64,000 nt of DNA from IMG/VR virus record IMGVR_UViG_3300029705_000009, one strand, 5' to 3'. Each line of letters starts with the position of its first letter. Positions within the stretch are counted from its first letter, which is position 1. Made by a program: the position numbers and the translations under genes. The stretch comes from a virus. Taxonomy: Duplodnaviria > Caudoviricetes. Positions 13,085 through 48,274 of the stretch are shown in pieces. Below the pieces are notes generated by a model, which ran no database searches, was not told the origin of the DNA, and saw only the letters and a list, made by a program, of their open reading frames with translations.

Positions 13085-13264
13085 TTACTCAAAACACTCT
13101 TCAATTTCTAACATTAGTTCATGTGTGGCAATTTTCATATTTTCACACATTCTTGCTTTTTTATAATCCTCATTTTCAAAATGATAATTATATTTTTTCG
13201 TATAATGTTTTTCTCGTGCTCTTAAAAAAGACATTATATTTTCTCTGGTAAATTCCTTTTTCAT
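13085..13264 (-). CDS. 59-aa hypothetical protein (not in ORF track)
   Basis: Manual translation MKKEFTREKYNVF..EECFE*. Confidence 0.55.
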   Translation of the reverse strand: MKKEFTRENIMSFLRAREKHYTKKYNYHFENEDYKKARMCENMKIATHELMLEIEECFE

Positions 13265-13266
13265 AG

Positions 13267-13488
13267 TTAATCTTCTTTCTCAACAATAATAGAAATTCCA
13301 TTACAACTTATTGCCGGATAACGCTCCGGATAAATTTCCTTTACAGTGTATTTTTCCAATGTGTCCAAAGTGTCCTTTGACATATATTGGACTTCTGCGA
13401 AATAGATACAATCTTCAGTTGATGTACTGGTGGAAATCCAAACCGTTGTATATCTATCAATCTTTGACAATAAATCTGTTAGTTTCAT
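13267..13488 (-). CDS. hypothetical protein
   Basis: Operonic ORF. Confidence 0.65.
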   Translation of the reverse strand: MKLTDLLSKIDRYTTVWISTSTSTEDCIYFAEVQYMSKDTLDTLEKYTVKEIYPERYPAISCNGISIIVEKED

Positions 13489-13509
13489 CCCCCTAAAACC
13501 TCCATTTTC

Positions 13510-13806
13510 TTACTTTACATTTTTTAATATTTCTGACTTCAAATAATCACATAATTCGTCATCGTCATATAAACTAATCAACTCATAATCTTCTGCGCAA
13601 TATAAATCTTCATATGAATGTGCATATATTCTAATTTCACTTTCTTCATATGTTTCCGTGTCAAAATTAGACACATTGGCATATATGTATTTCTTCTCGT
13701 GACCAGATTCTGCTTGTGTTACATCTTCAAACTTTCCTTCATACATCTGAAAATGATACATGTCAATAAACTTAACCTCTTTTAATTTTAAATTTGTTCT
13801 TTCCAT
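13510..13806 (-). CDS. hypothetical protein
   Basis: ORF with RBS. Confidence 0.7.
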   Translation of the reverse strand: MERTNLKLKEVKFIDMYHFQMYEGKFEDVTQAESGHEKKYIYANVSNFDTETYEESEIRIYAHSYEDLYCAEDYELISLYDDDELCDYLKSEILKNVK

Positions 13807-13834
13807 AATTCTTTCCTCCTATTAATTATTTTAG

Positions 13835-14110
13835 TTACTTATACTCTTCAACTTCTGCAATATAGAATTCTTTTATGTCTCCATCTTTCCAAGCAATTTG
13901 AGCCATTTCTTCTTCAAACCAGCACTCGTCTTCATCTAATGGATCATCATCATTGTATACTCTCTCTGCTAAAAGAGCATTGTACTGATCTTCCCAAATT
14001 CTTCGCAATGCTTCTTCTTCAGTTTCGTCTTCGTTTATTGAAAATACTTCCGGCATGATTTCGCTTATGTCAATGTCGTGAAATTTTCTATATGTTACTA
14101 TAACTTTCAT
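13835..14110 (-). CDS. acidic hypothetical protein
   Basis: ORF with GGAGG RBS. Confidence 0.7.
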   Translation of the reverse strand: MKVIVTYRKFHDIDISEIMPEVFSINEDETEEEALRRIWEDQYNALLAERVYNDDDPLDEDECWFEEEMAQIAWKDGDIKEFYIAEVEEYK

Positions 14111-14155
14111 ATCGAACCTCCGTTTTAACATTTATATAAAACTTTCATTTCTTGA

Positions 14156-14548
14156 CTAATGAATTTGTACTGATTTTCCATTATGAACTATTAATTCGGA
14201 ATAATCACTATCTGGATATATCAGTAACCATGATTCATCTTCTAAATACGGCGCCAACGTATCAAACATTTCAATCATAACGCCTTCCCAACCATAGCTT
14301 GCATTAAATCCGTTTTTATATACCGTAAATCCATCCTTTTCACTGATATCTACTTCTTGATTCCTCCAACCAGCTAAAAAGATTCTCATTAAATCATCAA
14401 ACGTTTCCGTTGTGATCCCTTGTTCCGCATATTTTTCCAACGAATAATTGGTCCGCTTATCATTCTTGATGTGTTCATTTAACGCCAAAATAGCACCTTT
14501 CTCATCTTTTACCTTTACCTGTAATGTTACGTTATAACACGCTCCCAT
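14156..14548 (-). CDS. hypothetical protein
   Basis: ORF with RBS. Confidence 0.7.
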   Translation of the reverse strand: MGACYNVTLQVKVKDEKGAILALNEHIKNDKRTNYSLEKYAEQGITTETFDDLMRIFLAGWRNQEVDISEKDGFTVYKNGFNASYGWEGVMIEMFDTLAPYLEDESWLLIYPDSDYSELIVHNGKSVQIH

Positions 14549-14708
14549 ATTCTCCTCCCTCTTTATTATCTAATTCAATGATTACTTTATTTGCCTTCAT
14601 CCTTCTTGCTACTTTTACAAAATCCTCTACGTTTCCGTTCAAATAATCTTTAATCTCACAAGTAATTTTTACTACTTTGTTTTTTGGATCGATTACTTTG
14701 TAATCCAT
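14532..14708 (-). CDS. hypothetical protein
   Basis: ORF with RBS. Confidence 0.55.
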   Translation of the reverse strand: MDYKVIDPKNKVVKITCEIKDYLNGNVEDFVKVARRMKANKVIIELDNKEGGEYGSVL

Positions 14709-14744
14709 GCTATTTCCTCCGTTTAAAATCACTCTTTTATGTGG

Positions 14745-14858
14745 TTATTGGTACTTATACAAGCACACAAGTTTAGTATGAATCCTCTTTCCAAAAAGAT
14801 AATATTCATTCCAACAACCAATAATATTTTTAACTTCTCGCTTTTCAAAAATCTTCAT
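14745..14858 (-). CDS. 37-aa ORF bounded by two junction sites
   Basis: MKIFEKREVKNIIGCW..YKYQ*; AAGGAGG RBS. Confidence 0.5.
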   Translation of the reverse strand: MKIFEKREVKNIIGCWNEYYLFGKRIHTKLVCLYKYQ

Positions 14859-14882
14859 AGAAACCTCCTTAAAATCGTCATT

Positions 14883-15110
14883 TTATTGTTCAAAATCAAA
14901 CTTAACTGAAAATCCTTTAATCTTCCTACTAAAATCCTTTGCATGAATTACTACTGCTCCACAATCTTCACACCATAATGCAAACTGATTTACTCCACTT
15001 CCCATATAATTTGCACCACCACGATTCATCTTTCCACCACACCAAATACATTTACATTCATTTGGTATTGTCATTCCGTTATTTACTACTGTTTTAATTT
15101 TTCCACTCAT
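14883..15110 (-). CDS. Zn-ribbon protein
   Basis: CIWCG..CEDCG. Confidence 0.65.
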   Translation of the reverse strand: MSGKIKTVVNNGMTIPNECKCIWCGGKMNRGGANYMGSGVNQFALWCEDCGAVVIHAKDFSRKIKGFSVKFDFEQ

Positions 15111-15137
15111 AATAAATCTCCCTATGAAATTATCCTT

Positions 15138-15395
15138 TTAATAGTCAATTCCCAATCTGTCCATCAACACTCTGCCAATGGATAGGCGAATATCATCATC
15201 GTTGTAATATCCTTCTTCATCCCAAGCAGAAGCACACATCACATCGTCAATTACATCGTCCATAAACATACTTTCCGTTTCTTCATTTTCGTGTTCAAGA
15301 ATATATCTTGCGTATTCGCTACTTACTGCGTTCTGCATAATCATTCTAATTTCATTCTCAATGATTTTCTTCTCTTCTTTATTCATCTTTCTCAT
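15138..15395 (-). CDS. hypothetical protein
   Basis: ORF with GGAGG RBS. Confidence 0.7.
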   Translation of the reverse strand: MRKMNKEEKKIIENEIRMIMQNAVSSEYARYILEHENEETESMFMDDVIDDVMCASAWDEEGYYNDDDIRLSIGRVLMDRLGIDY

Positions 15396-15426
15396 GCTAA
15401 ATCCTCCCTTTAAAATCGTCATTTTA

Positions 15427-15732
15427 TTAGTTAAAGCCAACCATTACAACTTTGTTGTGTCTAACCGCTTCATCAAACCAATCAATGCTGTCATCACTTG
15501 TGTATTCGTTCTGTAAATATTCTAAAGGATTTTCCATATCCATATAGTTAAATAACCAATCCTTTTCTACAATGACAATAACCTCATTAAAATCTGCTTC
15601 AATTCCGTTATCCTCATCTTCCCAATCCATAAAGCACTCACTACAAATACAAAATGCAATCAAATCTTTATGTTCTGCAAACTCTATATACTGTGTCACT
15701 CCAAGCAAAATTCTTTCTCTTACTGCGTTCAT
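15427..15732 (-). CDS. acidic hypothetical protein
   Basis: ORF with RBS. Confidence 0.7.
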   Translation of the reverse strand: MNAVRERILLGVTQYIEFAEHKDLIAFCICSECFMDWEDEDNGIEADFNEVIVIVEKDWLFNYMDMENPLEYLQNEYTSDDSIDWFDEAVRHNKVVMVGFN

Positions 15733-15762
15733 ATCAATACCTCCTATAAATTATCCTTTTAT

Positions 15763-16074
15763 TTACTCAACCATACGAGGGACTAACTCTCTGTGTTCTC
15801 TGATATACTGTTTGATTTCTGCTATTTCCTTTTTACTTAAATCGTGAGGGATATTATCATTTCCTTGTTCAGCATTTTCTATATTTCTCCAAAAAGACCA
15901 ATATGGGCATTCTTTTGTTGGAACATCAACTCCCGTCATATCCCATGTATCATCGAAGTTTCCTTTGCTGGTAGGCTCTTTATGGAAATATAACAATACT
16001 GCGTCTCCATACTCTCCGTATGGTTTATATAAAAATGTTCTTTTTTCTTTTTTCTTAAAAATATTCATACTCAA
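15763..16074 (-). CDS. hypothetical protein
   Basis: ORF with RBS. Confidence 0.65.
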   Translation of the reverse strand: MSMNIFKKKEKRTFLYKPYGEYGDAVLLYFHKEPTSKGNFDDTWDMTGVDVPTKECPYWSFWRNIENAEQGNDNIPHDLSKKEIAEIKQYIREHRELVPRMVE

Positions 16075-16096
16075 AACCTCACTTAAAATTACATTT

Positions 16097-16264
16097 TTAA
16101 TCTACTAAATCAAATCCATTGTGACAAAATCCTTCTTGGTCTGATAGCCAATCTGAAATTTCATCTTCGTCAGTCATACCTTCTGGAATTTCCATTTCTT
16201 CTGGCAATTCATATAACCATTCTAAATCTCCGTCTGTATCCCATTTAATATTTATTGCTTTCAT
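16097..16264 (-). CDS. small acidic phage protein
   Basis: MKAINIKWDTDGD..LP..ISDWLSD. Confidence 0.7.
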   Translation of the reverse strand: MKAINIKWDTDGDLEWLYELPEEMEIPEGMTDEDEISDWLSDQEGFCHNGFDLVD

Positions 16265-16295
16265 ATTTTTCCTCCACTTAAAAATCATCATCTAC

Positions 16296-16616
16296 TTAAT
16301 TTTCTTCCGAACAAATATCCACAATTGTATCGATTAAATTCTGTAAAGAATCAATTCCATATCCATGCAAAGGAATCATCAGATCTTCGGTAACTTTATC
16401 TCTCAGTTCGCAATAATGAGTCCAACCTTTCATTTCTCCGTCTTCAAGATAATCAAACGAAATATCAAGCTCGTTTCCATTAATAGAATCAATATCATAT
16501 GTTACAATTCTCGTATTAAATGTTTTAGGCTTTCTTCCTTTGCCATTCCAATTGGTAGGATTCATCTTTTGCATAAAATCTTTTGCAATTCTTTCTGCTT
16601 TTTCAATACTAAACAT
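16296..16616 (-). CDS. hypothetical protein
   Basis: ORF with RBS. Confidence 0.7.
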   Translation of the reverse strand: MFSIEKAERIAKDFMQKMNPTNWNGKGRKPKTFNTRIVTYDIDSINGNELDISFDYLEDGEMKGWTHYCELRDKVTEDLMIPLHGYGIDSLQNLIDTIVDICSEEN

Positions 16617-16617
16617 A

Positions 16618-16998
16618 TTAGATTCCCTCCTCGCTCATAACATACTCTACAGTTACATCATCTGTATCCATCCAGTCTTCTACTGAATAATTTCCCTCAC
16701 AGAAGTCAAGCGACGGCCACAGATACAAAGCTCTTTTCTTTTCATCTTCTACATAACGATATTCATCACAACTTGGGTTGTCCAGGACATAGCCACCACA
16801 ACCAAGGTGTGCTCCCCAATATTCTCCGGTCTCTTTACTTTTCTCTACAAGGTCCGCAACCTCTTCTGGCTGCAGATAGTAAGTACAAAGAGCATGAGCA
16901 TCATTGTACTCAAACACATAGACACCTTCACTTTTACTGTATAAATCCTTTCCACTACAAAGATAATCATACATTTGCTTTCCGTTTTCGAATTTCAT
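16618..16998 (-). CDS. hypothetical protein
   Basis: ORF with RBS. Confidence 0.7.
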   Translation of the reverse strand: MKFENGKQMYDYLCSGKDLYSKSEGVYVFEYNDAHALCTYYLQPEEVADLVEKSKETGEYWGAHLGCGGYVLDNPSCDEYRYVEDEKKRALYLWPSLDFCEGNYSVEDWMDTDDVTVEYVMSEEGI

Positions 16999-17026
16999 AT
17001 TTGTCCTCCGCTCTTGTTTTGATTTA

Positions 17027-17290
17027 TTAATACGCTACAAATTCTGGAATTCCATGCTCTGGATATCTTCCGCATGTTCTCAATGTTTCCAAAATATTTT
17101 CTAACTCTTCTTCTACAAGCCTATCAAATTCCTCATCAGAAACATCTTCTGGAATATCTTCACCAAGTCTCCCTTCTACATTTACTTCTGCCGCCACATA
17201 CAATTCGTTGTTGTATACTTTATAACTTGAATAACGATGATCATTCTTTCTGGGTTGACTACTTACTTCATATAATGCATAAACTCTCAT
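17027..17290 (-). CDS. hypothetical protein
   Basis: ORF with AGGAG RBS. Confidence 0.65.
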   Translation of the reverse strand: MRVYALYEVSSQPRKNDHRYSSYKVYNNELYVAAEVNVEGRLGEDIPEDVSDEEFDRLVEEELENILETLRTCGRYPEHGIPEFVAY

Positions 17291-17309
17291 ATTTGTTCTC
17301 CTTTCAGTA

Positions 17310-17663
17310 TTAACAATACGGTACGCGACCCTTTTCTTTGCTACCTTGTCTCCTTTCAATTACAAAACTCTCACCTTCTCCTATGTAATAACTTCCTCTG
17401 TAAATACGGTTCCTTTCTTTATTTAACTGCCATGGATACGAACGAGTTTCATGTCTAATTGCTGCCCATTCATTTTGGTTTTCTTCTCTAAAACCTAGTT
17501 CTTCATTTTCTTTCTTGCACTCTTCCCAAATTCGCAAGAGTTCTTTTTTACAAGCACGTTTTGATTTGTGTTCACTTTCAACTAATTGATTACCAGAATA
17601 ATAGTAACCACCCTCTGCCGGTTCATAAATTGGATACTCTGTATAATGACTTATGTATCTCAT
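17310..17663 (-). CDS. hypothetical protein
   Basis: ORF with RBS. Confidence 0.7.
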   Translation of the reverse strand: MRYISHYTEYPIYEPAEGGYYYSGNQLVESEHKSKRACKKELLRIWEECKKENEELGFREENQNEWAAIRHETRSYPWQLNKERNRIYRGSYYIGEGESFVIERRQGSKEKGRVPYC

Positions 17664-17702
17664 GTTTGTCCTCCGATCAAATAAGATTTTATCATCTACA
17701 TC

Positions 17703-17921
17703 TTAATTCAAAATATTCATTGTTACCCATCTCTTAGCACTTGCTAAAGACTTACAATTTTTTAATATTGACGTAGCATCAAAACCAACCACGTCATATG
17801 TACCATCTCCTAACAGGTCAATCCAATAATATCTGCCGTCTTTTGTGCGGATTGCCCACTCAGTAGGTGTTCCATCATCTAAGTCACACTCATGAACTAT
17901 TTCCCATTTTTCTTTTGTCAT
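17703..17921 (-). CDS. hypothetical protein
   Basis: ORF with RBS. Confidence 0.65.
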   Translation of the reverse strand: MTKEKWEIVHECDLDDGTPTEWAIRTKDGRYYWIDLLGDGTYDVVGFDATSILKNCKSLASAKRWVTMNILN

Positions 17922-17931
17922 AACTGTCTCC

Positions 17932-18936
17932 TTAAATTAATCCTAATTTTCTTAACTGGCCAAAAATTGCTTCTAACACCGGAATACATATACTGTTTCC
18001 AGCAAGGAAACTCACCTGCTGCTCAGTAATTCCATTTTTAATCATGTGATTGTAATCTTTATCCTTGAATCCCATTAATCGTAAATGTTCTCTGCCGGTA
18101 AGCATTCTCAATTTCCCATCATAATAAATAGCTTGTCTCGGCGCCGTTGTTAAAGTCTTACATACACCATGGCCAACTCTACCTCTTCTTGTTGTACTAC
18201 TAGGAAATTCAACATTGATCACATCATATTCGTTAACCTCTTTGTAACCAAGTTTAGTAGCTTCTCTTGCGCACAATTGTCCATCTTCCCTTACAAAGAA
18301 GATTTTCTGCTCTGCATCTCCAAGTTTGTATTTATCCCAATCAACACTCTTTTCAAGATAGTAACGAATATCTTTCTTTAAAGGCACAGGTTCAGGGAAT
18401 TCAAATTCCTTTCCATCAAGTACATCTTCAAGAATGCTGATAGTATATAAACGTTCTCTTGCTTGAGGTATTCCATAATCTGCAGCATTAAGAATTGCAT
18501 AATAATTTTTGTAACCCATCTTTTCCATTGACTCCAGATAATGATAATGATGAACACGATGATTTACTTTCTTTCCCTCTGACAGAAGATTAGGTACATT
18601 CTCCCAGAGAACAACTTTAGGTCTTGTAGGAAGTTTATGATCGATGATAGCAAGTGTTTCTTCGTAAAGAATAGATCTTCCAGTATTTACATTGTTTTTT
18701 CCATTCTTACTGAAATCGACGCAAGGACTTCCATGTATCAAAATATCTGGATTCAAGTTCCATTCTCTTACATCTTGTGGCTTATAATTAATATCAAAAA
18801 TTGAGTTATAAGCTTGTACTGCAAATGGAAGAATTTCCACATAATCAATACTCTTAATATCGTATCCCATATTTTCTAGTGCTTTTCTAGGTGCACCAAT
18901 GCCTCCAAACAACTCAACTGTTTTCAACTGTTCCAT
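17932..18936 (-). CDS. dcm: DNA (cytosine-5)-methyltransferase, orphan
   Basis: ELFGGIG, HGSPC, WENV, PQARER, GNS motifs. Confidence 0.93.
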
Positions 18937-19179
18937 TTACTCTTCCTCCGCTAATTCAACACAAATTGCTCCAATCCATACCTTTCCAATATTTACGACG
19001 TATGGATAAACATAATCAATTTCTCGGTCTAAATACTCTTCAAATTCACTTGTTGGATCTTCATCAATGTTTCCTTCGTAGTAAACAGTTGGATAACTAT
19101 CACATTCCCAACGCTGCAGTTTAACGCGACCCTGAAGTGTAATTCCGTTATTTATCATATCTCTTAGTGTCATTTGCAT
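18937..19179 (-). CDS. hypothetical protein
   Basis: ORF with RBS. Confidence 0.65.
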   Translation of the reverse strand: MQMTLRDMINNGITLQGRVKLQRWECDSYPTVYYEGNIDEDPTSEFEEYLDREIDYVYPYVVNIGKVWIGAICVELAEEE

Positions 19180-19218
19180 TTCCTCCTATTATTTTATTTA
19201 CTTATTGTCATATTGTTA

Positions 19219-19728: not shown

Positions 19729-19746
19729 TAAATATGTTTTTATTTG

Positions 19747-20238: not shown

Positions 20239-20251
20239 ATAGGTTTCTCCT

Positions 20252-26562: not shown

Positions 26563-26778
26563 TTAAAATCCTGTTTTAAGTCCCCCTAAACAGTCTAAAG
26601 CTAATCCACTCTTTTCACCTATTCTTTCATTACATTGTGGACAATAAATAACATCAGTTCCATGGTTTAAGCATGTCATTCCCGGAATATGTTTAATATC
26701 AGAAACTTCATATTCAAATACACATTTACAAGTAGGACAAGTTTTCTGTCTTGATTTACCTCTTTCTATAATTTTCAT
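26563..26778 (-). CDS. Zn-ribbon protein
   Basis: CPTC..CPQC. Confidence 0.65.
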   Translation of the reverse strand: MKIIERGKSRQKTCPTCKCVFEYEVSDIKHIPGMTCLNHGTDVIYCPQCNERIGEKSGLALDCLGGLKTGF

Positions 26779-26795
26779 ATTGCCACCTCATAAAA

Positions 26796-26945
26796 TTATC
26801 CTTTTATTTCCTCTACTTCCCACACGTTTTTATACTGTGGGTTTAACCAAATTTCTGTTGCTACATCATTACAAGCAACATTGATAGAATAAAATTTTGG
26901 TTCTTTATTAATTAATTCAAACATTGTTACTTTGTAGTTTTTCAT
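26796..26945 (-). CDS. 49-aa ORF flanked by identical ATAAAATTATCC sites
   Basis: MKNYKVTMFELINKEP..IKG*; GGAGG RBS. Confidence 0.55.
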   Translation of the reverse strand: MKNYKVTMFELINKEPKFYSINVACNDVATEIWLNPQYKNVWEVEEIKG

Positions 26946-26964
26946 AACAAACCTCCCTATAAAA

Positions 26965-27315
26965 TTATCCGTTCATCTTATTCATTTTTGCACCAAGTTT
27001 TACCGTTTCCATTGATGCCACATGAGCAATTGTTCTGTGTGCAATGAATTCAATATCGTATGGAAGAACATCATTATATTCCTCAAAAATATTTTCCATT
27101 GCATTTTCGATTGCAGCTTCAATACACTTGGCACGAACATCAGAAATCTGACCAATTTCATTTCTTTCTAATGGTGTAACATTATTTTTCATTTTATCAC
27201 CCTTTTCATACAACCATTCTTCATAATCATCTCCGGTAACACAACCTTCCGGAACACCAATCTGTCCTCTGCTTTCAATTTCTTTAACAATATCCTCTGC
27301 AAATTTAATTTTCAT
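26965..27315 (-). CDS. hypothetical protein
   Basis: Operonic ORF. Confidence 0.6.
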   Translation of the reverse strand: MKIKFAEDIVKEIESRGQIGVPEGCVTGDDYEEWLYEKGDKMKNNVTPLERNEIGQISDVRAKCIEAAIENAMENIFEEYNDVLPYDIEFIAHRTIAHVASMETVKLGAKMNKMNG

Positions 27316-33296: not shown

Positions 33297-33827
33297 TTAT
33301 CTGTCAGACTTCTTCACATACTTGAACTTCTTCTCAAACTCTTCTTTCGCCTTGAAGTATACAGAACCTTCAGAGTAATCAATTCGGACACCAGCATTGT
33401 AAGCTTTCTGAGCATCGAGATACTCACCATTGGTAGCTTTGTATACACAGTAAGCTTTTCTCATACCCATGTAAGACTTCTGGTTGAAACCATCACTCTT
33501 CATTCCCCAACGATAGAAACCGTCATACTTCTTAGGTTCGAAATCTGCAAGCTTCATGTCCTTCAGAGACTTTGTCTCTTTCAGAGGTTTTGTCTCTTTC
33601 TTAGCCTCAACAGGTGCATTCTTCTTCGCAGATGTCTTCTTGGATACACTCTTAGTGGCAGCCTTTGTACCATTCTTAGGGGCAGACTTCTTAGAAGTCT
33701 CAACCTCAGTACCCTTTAATGCATCAATGTCCATACGAATGGACTTCTGCTCAGTTACGATGCTCTCAAGCATCTTGCTCATTGTTGCCATCTGTGCCAT
33801 AATTTCGTGATTGCTGATTCTTGCCAT
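33297..33827 (-). CDS. Lys-rich protein, paralog of 34575..34991
   Basis: MARISNHEIM.. coiled coil, K/S/T linker, ..KKSDR*. Confidence 0.75.
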   Translation of the reverse strand: MARISNHEIMAQMATMSKMLESIVTEQKSIRMDIDALKGTEVETSKKSAPKNGTKAATKSVSKKTSAKKNAPVEAKKETKPLKETKSLKDMKLADFEPKKYDGFYRWGMKSDGFNQKSYMGMRKAYCVYKATNGEYLDAQKAYNAGVRIDYSEGSVYFKAKEEFEKKFKYVKKSDR

Positions 33828-34574: not shown

Positions 34575-34991
34575 TTAACGATCAGACTTCTTGGTGTAAG
34601 GGAATCGTGCATCGAAAGGCTTCGCAATCTTGCAGAACTCATCGTAAGCAACCCAAGCATCCTTTTTGCCAGTTACACTGGCAACGTACTTCGCTCTACA
34701 AGTCTTCCAAGACTTGTAGTTGTAGTTACCGTCGGCATCTTTCTTTGGCTCAAACTGAGCCAAAGTGTCAACCTTGGTGGAAGACTTCTTCGAAGTCTTA
34801 GGGGTTGTGGTAGGTGCAGACTGCTTCTTAGAAGACGTAGTCTTCTTAGAAGAGGTTTTCTCCACCGATACGGCTTTCTGCAAAGCAGAAATGTCTGCTC
34901 TCTGGTTCTTCTGCTCCTCAATGATGCTCTGCATCATTGTACCCATAGCGGTTAACTGTTCCATAATCTGTGCGTTACTAATTCTTGACAT
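34575..34991 (-). CDS. Lys-rich protein; first gene of leftward operon
   Basis: MSRISNAQIM..KKSDR*; AGGAGG RBS. Confidence 0.75.
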   Translation of the reverse strand: MSRISNAQIMEQLTAMGTMMQSIIEEQKNQRADISALQKAVSVEKTSSKKTTSSKKQSAPTTTPKTSKKSSTKVDTLAQFEPKKDADGNYNYKSWKTCRAKYVASVTGKKDAWVAYDEFCKIAKPFDARFPYTKKSDR

Positions 34992-35660: not shown

Positions 35661-35891
35661 ATAATGCATGAAATGCAGATTGTGCATGAAATGCATTTAA
35701 AAAAATAAATCCATTAAATGCAAAATCTATCCGAAATAAATAATATTCAACTTCACTTCTTCTATTCTTATGTAACATTAAGTTATTCCAGTAGAGTTTA
35801 CGAAACAGAAATAAATAACCGGTTTTCCTTTAAAAAGAAAATGAAGTATAAAATGAATAATTTGCCATTAGATAAATAAAATTATATATAG

Positions 35892-35920: not shown

Positions 35921-36229
35921 ACATAATGAAATGTATAGGTTTATAAGCCTATGCCATTATTTTGGGTATTAGGTAAATAAAATTACATATGCTTTTTTAC
36001 AAAATAATTTTATTGCCTTTTATATACCTTTTCTTTAAAAGGGGTACATCAAAAATTCCCAGTAAATAAAGCAAAAAATTTTCATTTTATTGCTTTTGGG
36101 TGTCAAAATTTTTAGACTCAAAAAAGAGTCCAAATTCAAAAAATCCAGTAAAAATAAGGAATTCAAAAAATATTTAATTGCTTTTTTACTTAAATGTGGC
36201 AATAAGCCAGTAAATACAAGGAGAAAATA

Positions 36230-37480
36230 GTGATGGAGATTAATATTGTAGATGCCATAATGGGATCTGGAAAAACGGCAGCAGCAATCAACTATATAAA
36301 TTCATCCGATGATAATAAAAGGTTTATTTATATAACACCATATATAGATGAAGTAAATAGAATAATAAAGCATTGTTCCTCTAAAAAATTCAAGCAACCG
36401 GAAAAATATAATGAAAAAGCTCCAAAGATTATTAGTTTAAAGGATTTATTAAATAAAGGAACAAATATAGCAACCACTCATTCTCTCTTCCATTTATTTG
36501 ATGATGAGATAATTGATTTATGTTATTCGCAAGGATATACATTAATCATGGATGAAGTAACCGAAGTAATTGAGCAGTACTTCATTGAGAAGACTGATTT
36601 AGATTTATTATTGGAGAATTTAGTAACCATAAATGATAATAATCTATTAAAATGGCGTGAAGACCAGCAAGATTATACTGGAGATAAATTCATTCAGGAG
36701 AAACGACTATGTGATATGGACTGTTTAGCTTTATATGGAAATTCAGTTATGCTATGGATGTTTCCTGTAAAGATATTTAGGGCATTTAGGGAAAGTTACA
36801 TACTTACATATATGTTCCAGGCACAGATGCAAAAATACTATTATGATTTTTATGGGTTAAAATATAAATATTTATATGTAACCGGTAATTCATTGGACAC
36901 ATATCAGTTTACAGAAAGCATACAGACATATGTGCATAAATATGATTATAGAAAGCTAATTACAATTTATGATGATGAGAAATTAAATATGATTGGAGAC
37001 TTAGATTATTCATTATCTAAAGGCTGGTATGAAAGAAATAGGAATAATGTTTTAATGAAGCAATTAAGAAACAATGCCTTAAATTTCTTTAATAATAAAT
37101 TAACTGTATTTAATGGCGAATCCTGGGAGAAATCCAAAAGTGAGAATAACTTATGGACAACCTTTAAAGATTATAAAGTTATAGTATCCGGAAAAGGATA
37201 TGCAAAGGGATTTTTACCTTCCAACATGCGGTCCACAAATGAATACAGAAATAGATCTACTATTGCTTATTTAGTAAATAAATATTTCAATCCATTAATA
37301 AAGAATTTTTTTGAGAAGAATGGAATCAATGTATATGAAGATGATTATGCTTTATCAGAAATGCTGCAGTGGATTTGGAGATCAGCCATAAGAGATGGAA
37401 AACATATAACCGTTTATATACCAAGTAAGCGTATGAGAAATCTTTTAACTAAATGGATATATGAACAAAAATACCGTTAG
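36230..37480 (+). CDS. SF2 helicase-like protein, possible replication initiator
   Basis: VDAIMGSGKT, TTH, IMDEV, QWIWRSAIR. Confidence 0.75.
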   Translation: MMEINIVDAIMGSGKTAAAINYINSSDDNKRFIYITPYIDEVNRIIKHCSSKKFKQPEKYNEKAPKIISLKDLLNKGTNIATTHSLFHLFDDEIIDLCYSQGYTLIMDEVTEVIEQYFIEKTDLDLLLENLVTINDNNLLKWREDQQDYTGDKFIQEKRLCDMDCLALYGNSVMLWMFPVKIFRAFRESYILTYMFQAQMQKYYYDFYGLKYKYLYVTGNSLDTYQFTESIQTYVHKYDYRKLITIYDDEKLNMIGDLDYSLSKGWYERNRNNVLMKQLRNNALNFFNNKLTVFNGESWEKSKSENNLWTTFKDYKVIVSGKGYAKGFLPSNMRSTNEYRNRSTIAYLVNKYFNPLIKNFFEKNGINVYEDDYALSEMLQWIWRSAIRDGKHITVYIPSKRMRNLLTKWIYEQKYR

Positions 37481-37522
37481 GTAAATAAAATTAAATTATT
37501 GTAAAATATTCGCAACACCATA

Positions 37523-38278: not shown

Positions 38279-38416
38279 TCACAGCACAAGAAGCAAAACA
38301 AGAAGTTTTATAGGTGGTGATTAATATGACAGCTCAAACAAGAGATGTCAATTTGTGGGGAACTAAAAGTAGTAAAAGAATAAAAAGATTTTTTTAAAGG
38401 AGGTTTATAGGACAAA

Positions 38417-39065: not shown

Positions 39066-39067
39066 GT

Positions 39068-41134: not shown

Positions 41135-41144
41135 TTTAGGAGAT

Positions 41145-41420: not shown

Positions 41421-41452
41421 GTAATAAAAATAAAATTTGCGAGGTAGTAGCT

Positions 41453-41827: not shown

Positions 41828-41845
41828 GATTTTAAGAGGAAAAAC

Positions 41846-42058
41846 ATGATTTTATTAAAAGTAATTGGAATAGCGATATTTTCAAGTTTGGTAGTTGCAT
41901 TGTCGGTAATTATATTTCCTGATTTTGTTTATAATCATATAAAAAATAAAAAGGTAGAAAATTTTTTAGAACATGATTTGGTCAAGGCATATTGGATATT
42001 GCTGACTATAGTTGTTGATACATTATTAATACTGGGATTTATTAATCTTATTTGTTAA
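41846..42058 (+). CDS. membrane protein
   Basis: Two TM segments. Confidence 0.65.
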   Translation: MILLKVIGIAIFSSLVVALSVIIFPDFVYNHIKNKKVENFLEHDLVKAYWILLTIVVDTLLILGFINLIC

Positions 42059-42070
42059 CTAGGAGGCAAT

Positions 42071-42349
42071 ATGTTAATTAGAAGCCAAGATAGAAAGAAA
42101 ATTTACAATACTGATACAATGAGCAGTATTTGGATTAATCGAAATTGTATTTACATATCAGCATGTGGAGATGATACAGATTTGCTTGGATCATACTCCA
42201 CAGAAGAAAAAGCACTCAAAGTATTAGACATGATCGAAGAAAGAACCAACGAACCTATTTACATTAATGATGAAGGCGGCGGCGAATATGCGAAGTACTT
42301 CCACTCTTCTTTCCATATGCCGCAGGATGATGAGGTGGAATTAAAATGA
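42071..42349 (+). CDS. conserved phage hypothetical protein
   Basis: MLIRSQD..LGSYSTEEKALKVLDMI. Confidence 0.7.
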   Translation: MLIRSQDRKKIYNTDTMSSIWINRNCIYISACGDDTDLLGSYSTEEKALKVLDMIEERTNEPIYINDEGGGEYAKYFHSSFHMPQDDEVELK

Positions 42350-42648
42350 CAATGAAGCAGACAAGAGAACAATTTTTGTTAGCTTTAAATTCTAATGCTT
42401 ATATTGGCATGTGTACTACAGAAGACATGAAAAATGTTATCAAAGCATTAGACAAACAGATTCCAAAGAAACCGAAAGTTCAAGTAAGAGGAGTTTATAA
42501 TGATGATTCGGGCGACTGGGTGTGTGATGAAGAATGGTATATGTGTCCATCTTGCCAGATGCGGAATGAAGTATATCCAACATGGAAATTATGTCATCAT
42601 TGTGGGCAGATGTTAGACTGGCTTGAAATGAGAACATTAAAATATTGA
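42346..42648 (+). CDS. Zn-ribbon phage protein
   Basis: ALDKQIPKKP..CPSC..CHHCGQ. Confidence 0.7.
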   Translation: MTMKQTREQFLLALNSNAYIGMCTTEDMKNVIKALDKQIPKKPKVQVRGVYNDDSGDWVCDEEWYMCPSCQMRNEVYPTWKLCHHCGQMLDWLEMRTLKY

Positions 42649-42659
42649 GAGGATAAAAA

Positions 42660-42893
42660 ATGAGTATTTTTACATTTTTGATGACTATTATTATAAGCAC
42701 TGGTGTAACGGCAATATTGGGTGATATGACAAAATCTGAAGGATTGGAATTTCTTAATCCAATATGGTTGTACGAAAAATATAAAGTCAATTGGTTTGGA
42801 GCCGGATTTCTTGGCATTTTACTTACTATATTAACACTGCCATATTCGATTTTCTATTGGATCTATAAACTTTGTACAGTCGGAAGAAAATAA
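42660..42893 (+). CDS. membrane protein
   Basis: Two TM segments. Confidence 0.65.
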   Translation: MSIFTFLMTIIISTGVTAILGDMTKSEGLEFLNPIWLYEKYKVNWFGAGFLGILLTILTLPYSIFYWIYKLCTVGRK

Positions 42894-42914
42894 TATGTTT
42901 TAAGAGGTGTGGTA

Positions 42915-43070
42915 ATGAATAAATGTGACTTTTGTACAAAATCATCTCCAGATGGAAAATGTTATTGGGTTTCACAAGGAAGCCGTGAAGATGATTGTGA
43001 AAAAGCCATTCAGAGAATGATTGAAGTTTTGAAAAATATAGGTTGTAATCAAATGAAATTTAAGGAGTAA
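42915..43070 (+). CDS. 51-aa Cys-rich ORF (not in track)
   Basis: MNKCDFC..*; GAGGTG RBS. Confidence 0.55.
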   Translation: MNKCDFCTKSSPDGKCYWVSQGSREDDCEKAIQRMIEVLKNIGCNQMKFKE

Positions 43071-43073
43071 AGT

Positions 43074-43358
43074 ATGAAACCAGTATATAAATGTGACTAC
43101 TGTTCTAAGATGGGAACAGAGGAAGAAATTAGAGAACACGAGCTTACCTGTATGGATAACTATGATAGAAAAAGTTGTTATACTTGCCAACATAGGGGCA
43201 AGATAAATATGGTAAACAAGCTTGTAAAATATGAGTGTGCTAAAGAAATTGATATTCCGGAAGGAAAGATTTTTGAATTTTGCCAATCGTATGAAAGAAA
43301 AGACAAATCCAATGGTCTGTATGATGATCTTATGACTGGTCTTTTTGGAAGATTTTAA
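43074..43358 (+). CDS. Zn-finger protein
   Basis: CDYC..HELTC. Confidence 0.65.
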   Translation: MKPVYKCDYCSKMGTEEEIREHELTCMDNYDRKSCYTCQHRGKINMVNKLVKYECAKEIDIPEGKIFEFCQSYERKDKSNGLYDDLMTGLFGRF

Positions 43359-43368
43359 GAGGTGAGAT

Positions 43369-43629
43369 ATGGGTGTGGATATTTATGGTAAGCATTTTAT
43401 TTGCAAAAATCAAATGAAATTTGAAGATTTAAAGAACGGACAAGTATTTTGTTTTGTAGATGATATCTCTGAAGATTCTAGTGAGATTAAAATTTATATG
43501 CGTGGTGGTCATACAACCACAGATGGTACAGCTATGGATCTTGAAACTGGAATTATGTATTCATTTGATGAAAAAAGTTATGTAAAGATTTTAGACGTAA
43601 CACTTAATATTAGAAGCGTGATATGTTGA
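43369..43629 (+). CDS. hypothetical protein
   Basis: GAGGTG RBS. Confidence 0.65.
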   Translation: MGVDIYGKHFICKNQMKFEDLKNGQVFCFVDDISEDSSEIKIYMRGGHTTTDGTAMDLETGIMYSFDEKSYVKILDVTLNIRSVIC

Positions 43630-43654
43630 AAATAAAATTTTAAGAGGTAAACAT

Positions 43655-43984
43655 ATGGAAGATTTAATAAGAGAACTTGATTTGTTATTGAAGAAATATG
43701 GAATCTCGTTCAATGAAGCAATGAGAATTTATGAAAGAAATAAAATATGTACAAAACGATTAACTCAATGTTACGAGGATGATGAAAAAGTATGGCAGTA
43801 CTATGACAAAGAGAACAATCCTTGTGGATGTGGTAGCAATTGTTTTCACTTTGAATATGACAGAATTGACAATGTTATATATGGAGTATGCAATTGTTGT
43901 AATACAGATATTTATATAATTAAAGATGAGTATGTTGAAGAGAAATTACATACTGGAAAATGGTTGAGTGAATGCTACTTTTAA
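43655..43984 (+). CDS. hypothetical protein
   Basis: ORF with RBS. Confidence 0.65.
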   Translation: MEDLIRELDLLLKKYGISFNEAMRIYERNKICTKRLTQCYEDDEKVWQYYDKENNPCGCGSNCFHFEYDRIDNVIYGVCNCCNTDIYIIKDEYVEEKLHTGKWLSECYF

Positions 43985-43997
43985 GAGGTTGATTGTT

Positions 43998-44207
43998 ATG
44001 AAAGTTGAAGACTTAATTGTATCAGCAGAAGAAGTTGCTACTGGTAAAAGATTAATTGGATATGTATGTGGTTGTAAATCATGTCAGACAGCATGGGAAA
44101 GCGAAAAGTACGATAAGACAAGACCTCTTGGATTATTGACTTCTCCAGATGGTCAGTTTGGAAATGTAAGAGTGTATACGGATAATATGGAGTTTGTGAA
44201 CAGATAA
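43998..44207 (+). CDS. hypothetical protein
   Basis: ORF with RBS. Confidence 0.6.
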   Translation: MKVEDLIVSAEEVATGKRLIGYVCGCKSCQTAWESEKYDKTRPLGLLTSPDGQFGNVRVYTDNMEFVNR

Positions 44208-44230
44208 AACGTATTTTAAGAGGTGATTAT

Positions 44231-44449
44231 ATGGCAAAAGGCAAGCCAAGATGGTATCCGGACAAACCTCAAAACAAAAGGGGTGCATACTGTCCAAGAT
44301 ACGAAGAACATAAAAATGGAATTAGCTATTGTGAACAAGGTAATGCCAGAGATGCTTATGTGTGCAAAGGTAATCCACATAATTGTGTAAAAACAAAATA
44401 TCATAGGGCGGCAAGTAGAAGTAATAAACAGATAAACAATGATGTGTAA
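44231..44449 (+). CDS. Cys-rich basic protein
   Basis: ORF with RBS. Confidence 0.65.
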   Translation: MAKGKPRWYPDKPQNKRGAYCPRYEEHKNGISYCEQGNARDAYVCKGNPHNCVKTKYHRAASRSNKQINNDV

Positions 44450-44474
44450 AAATAAACTTTTAAGAGGTAATAAA

Positions 44475-44603
44475 ATGATCATTATCAAACCGATTGTTAG
44501 TATTATATTGTTGATTCCATATATTTTATTCTTTGGTGCGTTTAGTTTGGGTGTTGATTTCCCAGATAATACAAGTATTTATTACAATGGTTGGCTTATA
44601 TAA
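44475..44603 (+). CDS. 42-aa membrane peptide (not in track)
   Basis: MIIIKPIVSIILLIPYILFFGAFSLG..*. Confidence 0.5.
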   Translation: MIIIKPIVSIILLIPYILFFGAFSLGVDFPDNTSIYYNGWLI

Positions 44604-44631
44604 CATAAAAATTAAATTTAAGAGGTAATAA

Positions 44632-45033
44632 ATGGGTAGATATATTGAAATAGATGGTCGCAGCTACTACTCTCCTTGCAGTGATTGTAAAGATAGATGG
44701 TGTTATTCATGTGTGATCAATAAATATAAAGAGGATTTGGAATCAGAACGAGATAAACGCGGCCATGCTGAATGGCGTATTGAACAAGAACTTGAACCTC
44801 GTATCAAAGCAGAGAAAGCCAGTTATGATAGATGGGTATCTACAGATACCGGTGCCGAAGCATGCTACTGCTTCTCTTCTTTACTTGATGAACTGATTGA
44901 TTTTGTTGAAAATCCAGATAATGAAAAATATATGGACTGGGAAGATGCAGCTGGTGACTTGGAGCAGAAAATTCTTTATCTGATTAAGAATAAAGTTGAT
45001 GATGACTTGTATTGTATAGCAGATAAGAGTTAG
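44632..45033 (+). CDS. hypothetical protein
   Basis: ORF with RBS. Confidence 0.7.
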   Translation: MGRYIEIDGRSYYSPCSDCKDRWCYSCVINKYKEDLESERDKRGHAEWRIEQELEPRIKAEKASYDRWVSTDTGAEACYCFSSLLDELIDFVENPDNEKYMDWEDAAGDLEQKILYLIKNKVDDDLYCIADKS

Positions 45034-45046
45034 GAGGTGGATATAT

Positions 45047-45322
45047 ATGGAATATAGAAGTGGCCAATTGTTGTATGTGTGCAAAACAGATAGCGATTTG
45101 AGAGATGGGCTTTTCGTTCTTTACAGAGATAAATATGAGGGAGATGTGGATTTGAGTTATCACGGAAGTCCTTGGTATGAAACCTTTATTGTTTGTGAAT
45201 ATCTCGATAGTCGTGACAGAGTTGAATTTGGTGATCAGACATGGTGTTGGCGTCCTGCTAATGAGTATATTAAGACTATGCAAAACAAATTAAGAGAGAT
45301 TAAGAATATAGCTAATATATAA
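45047..45322 (+). CDS. hypothetical protein
   Basis: ORF with RBS. Confidence 0.7.
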   Translation: MEYRSGQLLYVCKTDSDLRDGLFVLYRDKYEGDVDLSYHGSPWYETFIVCEYLDSRDRVEFGDQTWCWRPANEYIKTMQNKLREIKNIANI

Positions 45323-45347
45323 AATGCTAATTATATATGCCGAAAAA

Positions 45348-45441
45348 GGGTTAACAGTAGGCGCTATCCAAACCAGTAACCCTGCGACCATAAATGGGCA
45401 ACACCCAGTGCTGTAAGAGCATGTACGCTGTTAGGGATAGC
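45348..45441 (+). ncRNA. candidate pseudoknotted RNA
   Basis: GGGTTA/TAACCC interlocked with GCTATCC/GGATAGC; inner hairpins. Confidence 0.4.
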
Positions 45442-45471
45442 ATATGAAAACACACTTTCTGGAGGTGCTTT

Positions 45472-45630
45472 ATGAAAGACAAAGAAACAATAATGAAAGC
45501 TTTATCAGCGTGTAGTGAGTTTTATTGCTGTGAGTGTCCTTATCAGTATCTTGATGATAAAGAATATAGTTTGAGATGTATTCATACTCTTATTGAAGAT
45601 GTAAATGAAATGTTAAAAGAAAGCAAATAA
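45472..45630 (+). CDS. 52-aa Cys-rich ORF (not in track)
   Basis: MKDKETIMKALSAC..CECPY..*. Confidence 0.6.
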   Translation: MKDKETIMKALSACSEFYCCECPYQYLDDKEYSLRCIHTLIEDVNEMLKESK

Positions 45631-45643
45631 AAATAAATTATAA

Positions 45644-45850
45644 GTGATGGTGATTAATATAAAAATAAAGAAATTATTGTGTAGATTTGCAAATTGGATA
45701 TTAAGACAATGCGTAGAGCCTACAATAGCGTTTGAAGAAGATTTATATATCAATGGTAAAACTTATAAATTAGTTCAAGCAACCACAGAAATGTCACCTT
45801 ATTCTCATGTGACTATTCATTTTGAAGTTATTAGTGGCAAATACAAATAG
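45644..45850 (+). CDS. hypothetical protein
   Basis: Operonic ORF. Confidence 0.55.
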   Translation: MMVINIKIKKLLCRFANWILRQCVEPTIAFEEDLYINGKTYKLVQATTEMSPYSHVTIHFEVISGKYK

Positions 45851-45868
45851 AGTTTTAAGGGGTAAATT

Positions 45869-46033
45869 ATGAAATACAGATACGAATTTGAAGGAGACGA
45901 ATATATTGTCAAAGGTTTTTGTAGTGATTGTCCACTTAGTTATGTAGATTATGACGGATATGGTGGTCACGAAATTTGTTGTGTCTTACATGCAAGATAT
46001 GATGAATGCCCATTGGTAGAAGTAACAGATTAA
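45869..46033 (+). CDS. 54-aa Cys-rich ORF flanked by AAATAGAGTTTT repeats
   Basis: MKYRYEFEGDE..CSDCPL..ECPLVEVTD*. Confidence 0.6.
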   Translation: MKYRYEFEGDEYIVKGFCSDCPLSYVDYDGYGGHEICCVLHARYDECPLVEVTD

Positions 46034-46049
46034 AAATAGAGTTTTTAAG

Positions 46050-46244
46050 GTGGGGTTAAAAATGCATATTTCAAGCAATAAACATATTGGATCTTACGCT
46101 GGTGGTACATACGAATATCTTGAAATCAAAGAATATAAAGAATGTTGCTGCTGTAGGCACTTTTCTGATAATTGGCATGAAGAACGCTTTGAGTGTTTGA
46201 ATGTTAATAGAAAAGACGATGGCGATTGTTATGAAGATTTTTAA
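46050..46244 (+). CDS. hypothetical protein
   Basis: Operonic ORF. Confidence 0.55.
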   Translation: MGLKMHISSNKHIGSYAGGTYEYLEIKEYKECCCCRHFSDNWHEERFECLNVNRKDDGDCYEDF

Positions 46245-46255
46245 GAGGTGATATT

Positions 46256-46498
46256 GTGGATGTATTAGGTAGAAAAATTGTATTAACACGCAAACCACAT
46301 ATATGTTTTGGGTGTGGTAGAGAATTTTCAAAGGGTACAAATATGGAGAGGTCTTGTGTTGTTGATGGTGGAGATATGTGGACTTGTTATCTGTGTCCGA
46401 CATGTATTGATATCGTTAGTGCAATGAGATATGATGACGAATTTGGTTACGGAGATTTAAGAGAAGAAGCATTAGAAAGAGAAAATAATAGCGAATAA
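46256..46498 (+). CDS. Zn-finger protein
   Basis: TRKPHICFGC..CPTC. Confidence 0.65.
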   Translation: MDVLGRKIVLTRKPHICFGCGREFSKGTNMERSCVVDGGDMWTCYLCPTCIDIVSAMRYDDEFGYGDLREEALERENNSE

Positions 46499-46521
46499 AA
46501 CAAACTTTTAAGAGGTGAAAA

Positions 46522-46770
46522 ATGGAAGTATCTAAGATTTATTCAATGATTTATGATAGTAAAAAATATGGCAACGATGGTTACGGTGATTACTTGGGCG
46601 AATTTAAAATAGTTAAGCAACTCAGAGAAGATGCTTATGTAGATGATTTCATTGGTGTTAATACTGAAACTGATGAAGTGTGTTTTGTGCTTTCAAGAGA
46701 GGTATGCGGATATGGTGGCGGTATTGCTTATCAGGTTATTCCCATTCCAGAGTTAACATTGAAGCAATAA
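46522..46770 (+). CDS. hypothetical protein
   Basis: ORF with RBS. Confidence 0.65.
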   Translation: MEVSKIYSMIYDSKKYGNDGYGDYLGEFKIVKQLREDAYVDDFIGVNTETDEVCFVLSREVCGYGGGIAYQVIPIPELTLKQ

Positions 46771-46799
46771 AAACAAAATTGTTAGTGGTGAGGTAAATT

Positions 46800-47006
46800 A
46801 TGAGTAGAGGTGTACTTAGAGACGGATCTAGCGTATATAAAGAAATAAGAGAAAAACGTGTTGAGGATGTAATAATTAGAGCATCTAATAAAGCAGGTAT
46901 TACTAAGAGCGATTTATCTGATGCCTTTAAAGAAAAAGGATTTTTAGGTGTTTACAATCTTGGCATGATGCATATGTATGAGTATTTGAAAGGGGAAAAA
47001 GTGTAA
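46800..47006 (+). CDS. hypothetical protein
   Basis: ORF with RBS. Confidence 0.65.
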   Translation: MSRGVLRDGSSVYKEIREKRVEDVIIRASNKAGITKSDLSDAFKEKGFLGVYNLGMMHMYEYLKGEKV

Positions 47007-47188
47007 TGAATATTATTGAAAAACACATAATTGGAGAACTTTATAACAACATACTAACCAAAGGAGAATATCCTAAATTTGGTTCACCGGAATGTAATTG
47101 TAATAAATGTATGTTTTACAATGTTACATGTCCTCCATCTCCACATCGTGCTGGATGTTTTCACGGATGGAAAAAAGAAGAAAGTTAA
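47006..47188 (+). CDS. Cys-rich small protein
   Basis: Operonic ORF. Confidence 0.55.
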   Translation: MNIIEKHIIGELYNNILTKGEYPKFGSPECNCNKCMFYNVTCPPSPHRAGCFHGWKKEES

Positions 47189-47198
47189 GAGGTTGAAA

Positions 47199-47468
47199 AT
47201 GCGAGAACCAATTTATAGTAAGCAAGGTGAAGAGTTAAAAAGCACTATTTCAAATTTAATTTCTAGCCATAACACTTTATGTTCTATTGAAGAAGCATTT
47301 CAGGAAAACAAATATGCCAAACAATATTTTGAAGATGCAAGGCAAAAAGTTTTAGAGTCTGGTAATCAAAGTTTGGCAGCTATGTATGCTATTGCAATAG
47401 AAAATATGTCTAAATTTATTGAAGACAGTCAAGAGGTGGATTATGAAGTGTCCGAATTGTGGCAGTAA
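47199..47468 (+). CDS. hypothetical protein
   Basis: GAGG RBS. Confidence 0.65.
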   Translation: MREPIYSKQGEELKSTISNLISSHNTLCSIEEAFQENKYAKQYFEDARQKVLESGNQSLAAMYAIAIENMSKFIEDSQEVDYEVSELWQ

Positions 47469-47643
47469 TAAAATATTTAATTGTATCAATAGTCTTGCAT
47501 ATGCTCGTCTAAGATATTTCGAATGTGTAGAATGTGGCCATCAAAGTAGAAAAATAAAGATTGAAAAATTTACATGTGTCAATCATAAATCTGAATGGGA
47601 AATTGAATTAGAAGAATTAGAAAAAGAATGGGAATGGAGTTAA
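47443..47643 (+). CDS. Zn-ribbon protein
   Basis: CPNCG..CVECG. Confidence 0.6.
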   Translation: MKCPNCGSNKIFNCINSLAYARLRYFECVECGHQSRKIKIEKFTCVNHKSEWEIELEELEKEWEWS

Positions 47644-47653
47644 GAGATAAAAT

Positions 47654-48247
47654 ATGGCAAAAGTTACATTAAAAGATATTAAAATCCCAAATACTTGCGG
47701 AGAATGTAATTTTATTGGACGTTATGAAACTGGTCTATACGCTCGTAATCCACATTGTTGTTGTGAGTTGATGTGGGGTTTAAAAGAGGAAGACTATAAA
47801 GTTGATAAGAATTCACTTGATGAAAATTGTCCTCTAAAGGTTTTATTAGGTGCGAATAAATCCTGGTACGAAAAGACAGACTTATCTTCTATTGTTCGCA
47901 TTTCATTAAGCGATGATTTCATAGTTGACTACGACAAATCCAGAGGAATGTACAGAGTAAGCGTCTTTGATGACGGTCACTTCTGGGACGAGTTCTGGTT
48001 TGATGCTTATGAGGAGAAGGAAGTAGAAAATATATATCTAGTCTATGGCAATATAGAAGAAAGTGGAGATACTGATTCTTGGGTTGAAGCTATTTTCGAC
48101 AATAAAGAACAGGCGTTGTCTTGTGCAGAATATCTTAATTTAATAAAAAATCAAGAGAATGTAAGCTACTATGCATCTGGTTACGATTGGCATATGAACA
48201 AGATGGATTATGTAGAAGAACTGAAGAAGTTAAAAGATGGTAAATAA
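47654..48247 (+). CDS. multi-module hypothetical protein
   Basis: Cys-rich N-terminal module plus two further modules. Confidence 0.65.
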   Translation: MAKVTLKDIKIPNTCGECNFIGRYETGLYARNPHCCCELMWGLKEEDYKVDKNSLDENCPLKVLLGANKSWYEKTDLSSIVRISLSDDFIVDYDKSRGMYRVSVFDDGHFWDEFWFDAYEEKEVENIYLVYGNIEESGDTDSWVEAIFDNKEQALSCAEYLNLIKNQENVSYYASGYDWHMNKMDYVEELKKLKDGK

Positions 48248-48274
48248 AAATTATATTTAAAGTTGAGGTTACAT

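Follow-up and report, generated by a model that had tools for sequence, protein, structure and literature searches.

Palindromic sites with position-specific six-base centres as probable crossover points for gene exchange in SPbeta-like phages

The 64,000-nucleotide stretch of viral DNA analysed here (the window), taken from IMG/VR record IMGVR_UViG_3300029705_000009, carries a 16-bp imperfect palindrome, WAAAA-N6-TTTTA, at junctions between small genes. Comparison with other genomes suggests that these sites are probably the crossover points of a tyrosine-recombinase-type gene-exchange scaffold in SPbeta-like phages, the six-base centre serving as a positional address for in-register replacement of gene blocks. 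The window corresponds to bases 4947–68946 of a 153,849-bp provirus record that is 88% complete. The provirus is an SPbeta-like phage: mrpR, yopQ and the common structural core genes are all present, and the MrpR/YopR homologue, the YopQ homologue and a tyrosine recombinase (3723–4733) follow one another as in the repressor operon of SPbeta. From a promoter region near 35–36 kb, small genes run outwards in two divergent arms.

A preliminary description of the window had placed the palindrome at more than 20 junctions, and all 24 of its coordinates show a match or near-match. Seven are perfect, i.e. 10/10 (14724, 14870, 15411, 16084, 26791, 38381 and 44447), and most others score 8–9/10; 17677, 19728 and 43968 are weak (7–8/10) and unsupported. 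Three right-arm starts moved by one base when put in register with relatives (44203, 45842 and 46031). The upstream arm often supplies the stop codon of the preceding gene, as described, although not at every site. On both strands of the window the motif has 21 matches, compared to a mean of 4.63 and a maximum of 12 in shuffled sequences, and exact TAAAA-Nn-TTTTA peaks at n = 6 with 8 matches (0–3 at other spacers). Junctions in the arms (13–28 kb and 37–49 kb) were compared with all remaining junctions of the genome: sites of at least 9/10 located 10–18 nt ahead of a start codon were found at 14 of 77 arm junctions and at 0 of 161 controls (Fisher P = 6e-8). Because no control junction carries such a site, a null model of stop codon, AT-rich spacer and ribosome-binding site fails to explain the motif. 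We conclude that the motif is real and is placed at small-gene junctions of the arms. Its spacer had been described as variable, yet it is not freely so: the centres of 14 sites occur as perfect sites in other phages, and 17 of 37 candidate placements match centres of other phages against a null mean of 4.4, part of the comparison pool having been retrieved with two of the centres.

The motif is not confined to this phage. SPbeta contains 34 perfect copies, compared to 0–3 at other spacer lengths, and in E3, Thrax1, Perkons and c-st the motif ranks first or close to first among palindromes. It stands at gene edges in phages of Bacillus, Geobacillus, Psychrobacillus and Clostridium and in phages from the gut. 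It is absent from Sundance and from G002, the genome whose structural genes are closest to those of this phage. Sundance (L101, L100) has a different 14-bp palindrome repeated near 3.8–7 kb and 110.9 kb. In Spbetavirus an outer TCT..AGA symmetry extends the arms to an 11-6-11 site; ten genomes have 23–33 perfect sites per region, each centre being unique within its genome, and common centres keep perfect order (tau = 1). In eight dense-array genomes or loci, which together have 151 perfect sites, no centre is duplicated. This uniqueness is not significant versus chance (0 seen, 0.9 expected); all that it excludes is that insertion with duplication occurs routinely.

Base-level breakpoint statistics were taken from Spbetavirus rather than from the window because the closest relative, L091/L092, is too diverged (~85% identical, few perfect sites and no gene in common within the site-dense block); searches of viral contigs by recombinase and by exact site plus ribosome-binding site found no close relatives. 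Homology between the ten Spbetavirus genomes breaks at 583 unique points, 130 of them at sites, which occupy ~1.5% of bases; as these genomes are related, the counts are not independent events. The peaks are sharp at the site edges, with homology beginning at the left edge or stopping at the right edge. In SPbeta, 15 of 18 junctions with a site are breakpoints versus 12 of 44 without (P = 7e-5), and a gap-matched comparison gave 11/14 versus 2/13. Pooled junctions gave 119/154 and 147/506, respectively, the effect being weaker in BUCT082. Where phi3Ts and SPbeta have long identical blocks in common, 8 of the 32 block ends lie at sites (0.3 expected), one block having a site at both ends.

Breakpoint events running from site to site joined identical centres in 100 cases, centres with one mismatch in 5 and different centres in 8 (about five loci). 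Seven of these last eight keep the upstream side, the centre changing after the left arm. Across the ten phages, as many as 6 alleles stand upstream of a single centre and as many as 8 downstream. Clean indels touched a site in 7 of 29 cases, and clean insertion of a single cassette with a duplicated site is rare. Replacement dominates in Spbetavirus; duplicated centres and slot moves occur in the gut lineage. The pattern appears to be one of in-register block replacement between phages, not of integron-style insertion. Of the earlier proposal that the arrays grow and shuffle by site-specific recombination, the shuffling is borne out to the extent that genes of related phages have been exchanged with breakpoints at the sites and that the sites are built like those of tyrosine recombinases, and growth by insertion is not.

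Fourteen sites in the window carry centres from two ordered series that recur in more than 15 other phage contigs, the genes of each slot being unrelated (Table 1). Left-arm centres come from a six-member series present in at least 13 other contigs, and each slot of this series holds 8–9 unrelated contents; many of the contigs were fetched via one centre, and the evidence consists of the neighbouring centres and their order only. Right-arm centres belong to a second series, present in G006, G007, G008, G010 and G011, none of which was fetched by its centres. Two cargo genes of the window occupy different slots in L015 and L157, where homology ends at the left arm of the downstream site; in L015 the centres are identical although the common gene is just 87% identical. 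No functional family was found for the cargo genes. Thrax1 (L106–L109) has two left-series centres in the opposite order, which may be chance, and L218 has a duplicated run of the left series in which about half of the duplicate copies have decayed.

Several features distinguish the copy of the scaffold in the window. GGATAA occurs four times as a centre (three sites decayed) and TGACGA twice (both perfect). The sites at 26791 and 26960, which share GGATAA, bracket a 49-residue gene and look like the footprint of a site duplication. Copies of the right-arm series are perfect in 0 of 6 cases, compared to 14 of 15 in relatives, and are partly out of order. From the repeated centres and the imperfect, partly misordered right-arm copies we infer that the scaffold in this phage is under relaxed upkeep and has partly decayed.

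Table 1. Coordinates of sites, cargo genes and repressor-operon genes in the window
Feature	Coordinates	Strand	Remarks
Perfect site	14724..14739	-	centre GAGTGA, series 1
Perfect site	14870..14885	-	centre TGACGA, series 1, direct repeat of 15411
9/10 site	15125..15140	-	centre GGATAA, decayed duplicate
Perfect site	15411..15426	-	centre TGACGA
8/10 site	15746..15761	-	centre GGATAA, decayed duplicate
Perfect site	16084..16099	-	centre ATGTAA, series 1
9/10 site	26563..26579	-	register uncertain, centre without counterpart in relatives
Perfect site	26791..26806	-	centre GGATAA
8/10 site	26960..26975	-	centre GGATAA
Perfect site	38381..38396	+	centre without counterpart in relatives
8/10 site	41425..41440	+	centre ATAAAA, series 2
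9/10 site	43627..43642	+	centre ATAAAA, series 2
8/10 site	44203..44218	+	centre shared with 8/10 site of L137
Perfect site	44447..44462	+	centre one base off two series-2 centres
9/10 site	44606..44621	+	centre without counterpart in relatives
9/10 site	45842..45857	+	centre ATAGAG, series 2
9/10 site	46031..46046	+	centre ATAGAG, series 2, duplicate
8/10 site	46495..46510	+	centre ACAAAC, series 2, out of order
9/10 site	48245..48260	+	centre ATTATA, series 2
101-residue cargo gene	15427..15732	-	other slot in L015, 87% identical, homology stops right after TAAAA
85-residue cargo gene	15138..15395	-	site-to-site unit in other slot in L157, 76% identical
75-residue cargo gene	14883..15110	-	comes after different site in L019
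MrpR/YopR/SroF repressor homologue	1457..2365	-	marks phage as SPbeta-like
YopQ/SroE homologue	2358..3626	-	context gene
336-residue XerS/XerA-like tyrosine recombinase	3723..4733	-	at yopP position; R188, K212, H281, R284, H307, Y316

In the scheme that we favour, each site consists of a position-specific 6-bp centre between two inverted core arms of 5 bp (11 bp in Spbetavirus). When related genomes meet, i.e. a prophage and an incoming phage, sites with the same centre would recombine through tyrosine recombinase catalysis, and the block between two addresses would be replaced in register. Matching centres would be required, such that unlike centres would protect a genome against loss of its own genes. 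Units would be duplicated, deleted or moved in rare events that are mismatched or out of register. In the phage studied here the scaffold is partly decayed; it probably arrived together with gene blocks of dense-array phages and is probably served in trans or no longer served. A wider claim can be made more tentatively: these phages may possess a genome-wide natural cassette-exchange scaffold of dozens of six-base-addressed sites whose order is kept across a phage community, permitting slot-by-slot swaps of single genes between phages that share almost no accessory genes, with a recombinase able to act in trans, even on phages that seemingly do not have it.

Several results weigh against site-specific exchange of this kind. 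No protein family separates motif-positive from motif-negative genomes in the panel, and no phage recombinase family tracks the motif. The YopP family was rejected as a universal enzyme: neither this phage nor c-st has it, whereas Sundance, which lacks the motif, does. The family of the recombinase encoded at 3723–4733 is present in several motif-free phages and is missing from the densest arrays, including that of G008 (57 sites). Other assemblies seen of the same phage, fetched through a gene inside the repeat, have the same left array as the window, and in them both perfect direct repeats of TGACGA, which lie 541 bp apart, are retained. Finally, four laboratory-made phi3T/SPbeta hybrids contain four short crossover intervals (4–87 bp) without a site. 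Three more crossovers are masked by base differences, and four site-holding intervals of 1.4–18 kb are uninformative. The authors of that study invoke homologous recombination (10.1101/2020.05.06.055103). As ordinary homologous recombination explains the hybrid crossovers, site-based exchange was not the main route under those conditions.

The preliminary description had named the recombinase at 3723–4733 as intact and as the possible acting enzyme. The first point is correct in that the catalytic residue set is complete in the sequence, and the fold is like that of XerA/XerH. Its best profile is XerS at 141 bits, below the cut-off of 267, and it is not orthologous to YopP. This family is the sole recombinase detected in G007, G010 and G011, which have 9–12 sites; eight phage records found via the family have 0–5 sites versus 1–4 for controls. 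The motif occurs without this family and the family without the motif, and the protein is probably not the cognate enzyme, contrary to the earlier suggestion. An enzyme of this kind could nevertheless read these sites, because the difH core, GAAAA-N6-TTTTC, is read specifically via the inner 5 bp of each arm (PMC5241119).

YomM-type recombinases of the tail region were likewise rejected as a universal enzyme, since they are present in motif-free Sundance and G002. Tyrosine recombinases of 257–262 residues, with a short N-terminus missing most of the N-terminal domain, are absent from this phage and have no SPbeta orthologue. This last family (1466 proteins) goes with the densest gut arrays (21 sites in G005, 47 in G006 and 57 in G008), and most of its close homologues have 4–14 sites versus 0–2 controls. 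It is a lead only, and the association possibly reflects shared ancestry. A member at L015:16632–17417 is followed by a GmrSD-domain gene. The acting enzyme may vary by lineage, work in trans or be a host protein.

The main rival explanation is that the palindrome binds a dimeric regulatory or architectural protein, and that crossovers at the sole shared sequence arise by recombination through relaxed homology or micro-homology (Sak4-like YorG, host RecA), with no site-specific catalysis. The failure to find a cognate recombinase among the families compared is consistent with this possibility, as are the origin of the laboratory hybrids in long homologous blocks and the Sak4-like annealing protein annotated in SPbeta. 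The flanks 1–5 nt upstream of the sites are also somewhat slot-specific, a result partly biased by the search pattern. However, the patch common to partners at sites is 16–20 bp, less than the minimal pairing length of 23–27 bp quoted for Red-beta (PMC3945230), and the events with mismatched centres break mostly on one side. A regulator blind to the centre would also leave unexplained why centres are unique per genome and fixed across unrelated cargo. In favour of a binding protein, the recombinase-fold repressor SroF reads two A-tracts similar to one arm of the site (10.1101/2025.11.27.690993), but peaks from chromatin affinity purification with sequencing of MrpR map to SPBRE promoters, which have a different motif (PMC10516654). 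The SPBRE operators of MrpR/YopR/SroF belong to the same phage group, are A-tract-rich and are bound by a recombinase-fold protein. In contrast to the dyad at gene junctions, they are an asymmetric promoter motif with about ten peaks (PMC10516654), and in SPbeta both sequence and placement differ from those of the site. On balance, we consider the protein-binding explanation rather unlikely.

A 23-nt A-tract repeat, SPBRE-like and distinct from the 5-6-5 site, occurs in three copies in or near the divergent promoter region of the window (35867–35889, 35968–35990 and 37476–37498).

The integron-like array of the preliminary description, in which the enzyme at 3723–4733 would excise single-gene circles and insert them at other sites, is very improbable. 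It would account for the complete catalytic set and Xer-like fold of the protein, for the two window genes found in other slots elsewhere and for same-centre direct repeats bracketing a single gene, often with one copy decayed (26791/26960, and in relatives too). The arrays also resemble integrons as runs of small co-oriented units, each a ribosome-binding site plus an open reading frame, parted by recombination-type sites. However, insertion at matched sites would duplicate centres, and in the dense arrays each centre occurs once and in a constant order; few indels are clean and leave a duplicated site, and the distribution of the recombinase family described above does not fit. Integrons insert in order, whereas the phage sites show replacement in register. 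On the integron-integrase model TIGR02249 the protein scored 45 bits versus a cut-off of 265, over residues 270–327 only, i.e. no IntI-type integrase was identified. Nor did we find the long imperfect hairpins of attC, the sites being 16-bp (at most 28-bp) dyads with free flanks. An attI site beside the integrase with an adjacent array was likewise not found (the Pc promoter was not scanned): the arrays lie 10–44 kb from 3723–4733, near which there is one perfect site only, at 5597.

An RNA-level element (a weak AU hairpin or U-rich standby site) coupling translation termination and re-initiation would suit sites 10–18 nt ahead of start codons that often overlap a stop codon, but distances to the start in SPbeta range over 13–30 nt, and such an element does not predict outer-arm dyad symmetry, strict 6-bp spacing, position-specific centres or edge-sharp breakpoints, which leaves it still less credible than an integron-like array. 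That stop codons, AT-rich spacers and ribosome-binding sites yield the motif by chance is already refuted: despite a GC content of 33% and the several listed sites of just 7–8/10, the empty control junctions, the specificity for a spacer of 6, the shared centres and P values down to 4e-26 in SPbeta all contradict it.

Among known systems, the exchange scaffold proposed here would work most like pdif modules furnished with difH-like sites. Heterospecific lox/FRT cassette exchange also uses unlike spacers to prevent self-deletion, and is a man-made scheme. Lambdoid boundary or linker sequences and the PeSL cassettes of T4 are brief stretches of common sequence at the edges of modules, where they favour swaps in register; they are ascribed to homologous recombination or promoters and do not have a dyad with fixed arms and a variable centre. 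The arms of Bacillus subtilis dif resemble those of the phage sites only weakly. The phage sites share inverted arms around a 6-bp centre with XerH/difH of Helicobacter and XerS/difSL of streptococci (PMC5241119, PMC1914069), and the specific inner 5 bp is found in both. The latter systems use one chromosomal site for dimer resolution, whereas the phages have 10–57 sites with differing centres at gene junctions; the recombinase at 3723–4733 stays below the XerS cut-off (141 versus 267 bits), and its family does not track the motif. The core AAAA-N6-TTTT is common to difH and the phage sites. In pdif or dif modules of Acinetobacter plasmids, as outlined in PMC6449649, many Xer-type sites flank adaptive genes that move between replicons, and the phages likewise have multiple sites bounding mobile accessory genes. 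The pdif sites have host XerC and XerD arms, whereas the phage sites have symmetric A-tract arms, are on temperate phage genomes, form a conserved ordered series of centres and hold single small genes per slot. In agreement with the preliminary description, no account of such a system was found in the literature searched; SroD/SroE binding sites were outside that search.

Additional features of the provirus and its relatives were recorded. A second integrase is present at the end of the provirus record. In the whole record (G000, 88% complete), nothing matched the families of DNA polymerase, helicase and primase that most SPbeta-like phages of the panel possess. Among the first left-arm genes, 33297–33827 and 34575–34991 encode paralogous Lys/Ser-rich small proteins with similar N-termini and identical last five residues, and a HicA-domain toxin-like small gene lies in the left arm at 9111–9305 (Pfam match on the identical gene in L001). 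At 55118–58888 a class V aminotransferase (cysteine desulfurase-like) gene lies directly 5' of the gene for an 860-residue YonO-like protein, and seven tRNA genes (Asn, Pro, Glu, Gly, Asp, Ala and Ser) are located at 59883–61762. In the closest relative, a reverse transcriptase gene lies upstream of a methylase (L092:1310–2677) and a faint LAGLIDADG gene ahead of a ligase (L091:14050–15222).

How mosaic phage genomes with breakpoints exactly at gene edges arise has long been asked, and the usual answer is selection among the products of illegitimate or relaxed homologous recombination. In the phages compared here, the gene edges hold a fixed dyad with position-specific centres, including in SPbeta, a laboratory model with lysogens and mutants; since the motif is present in this model, programmed gene exchange is directly testable. 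The window adds a case of a decaying scaffold, in which the adjacent recombinase should not be assumed to be the actor. If the enzyme were found, it would bring with it over 60 natural sites, all distinct from one another.

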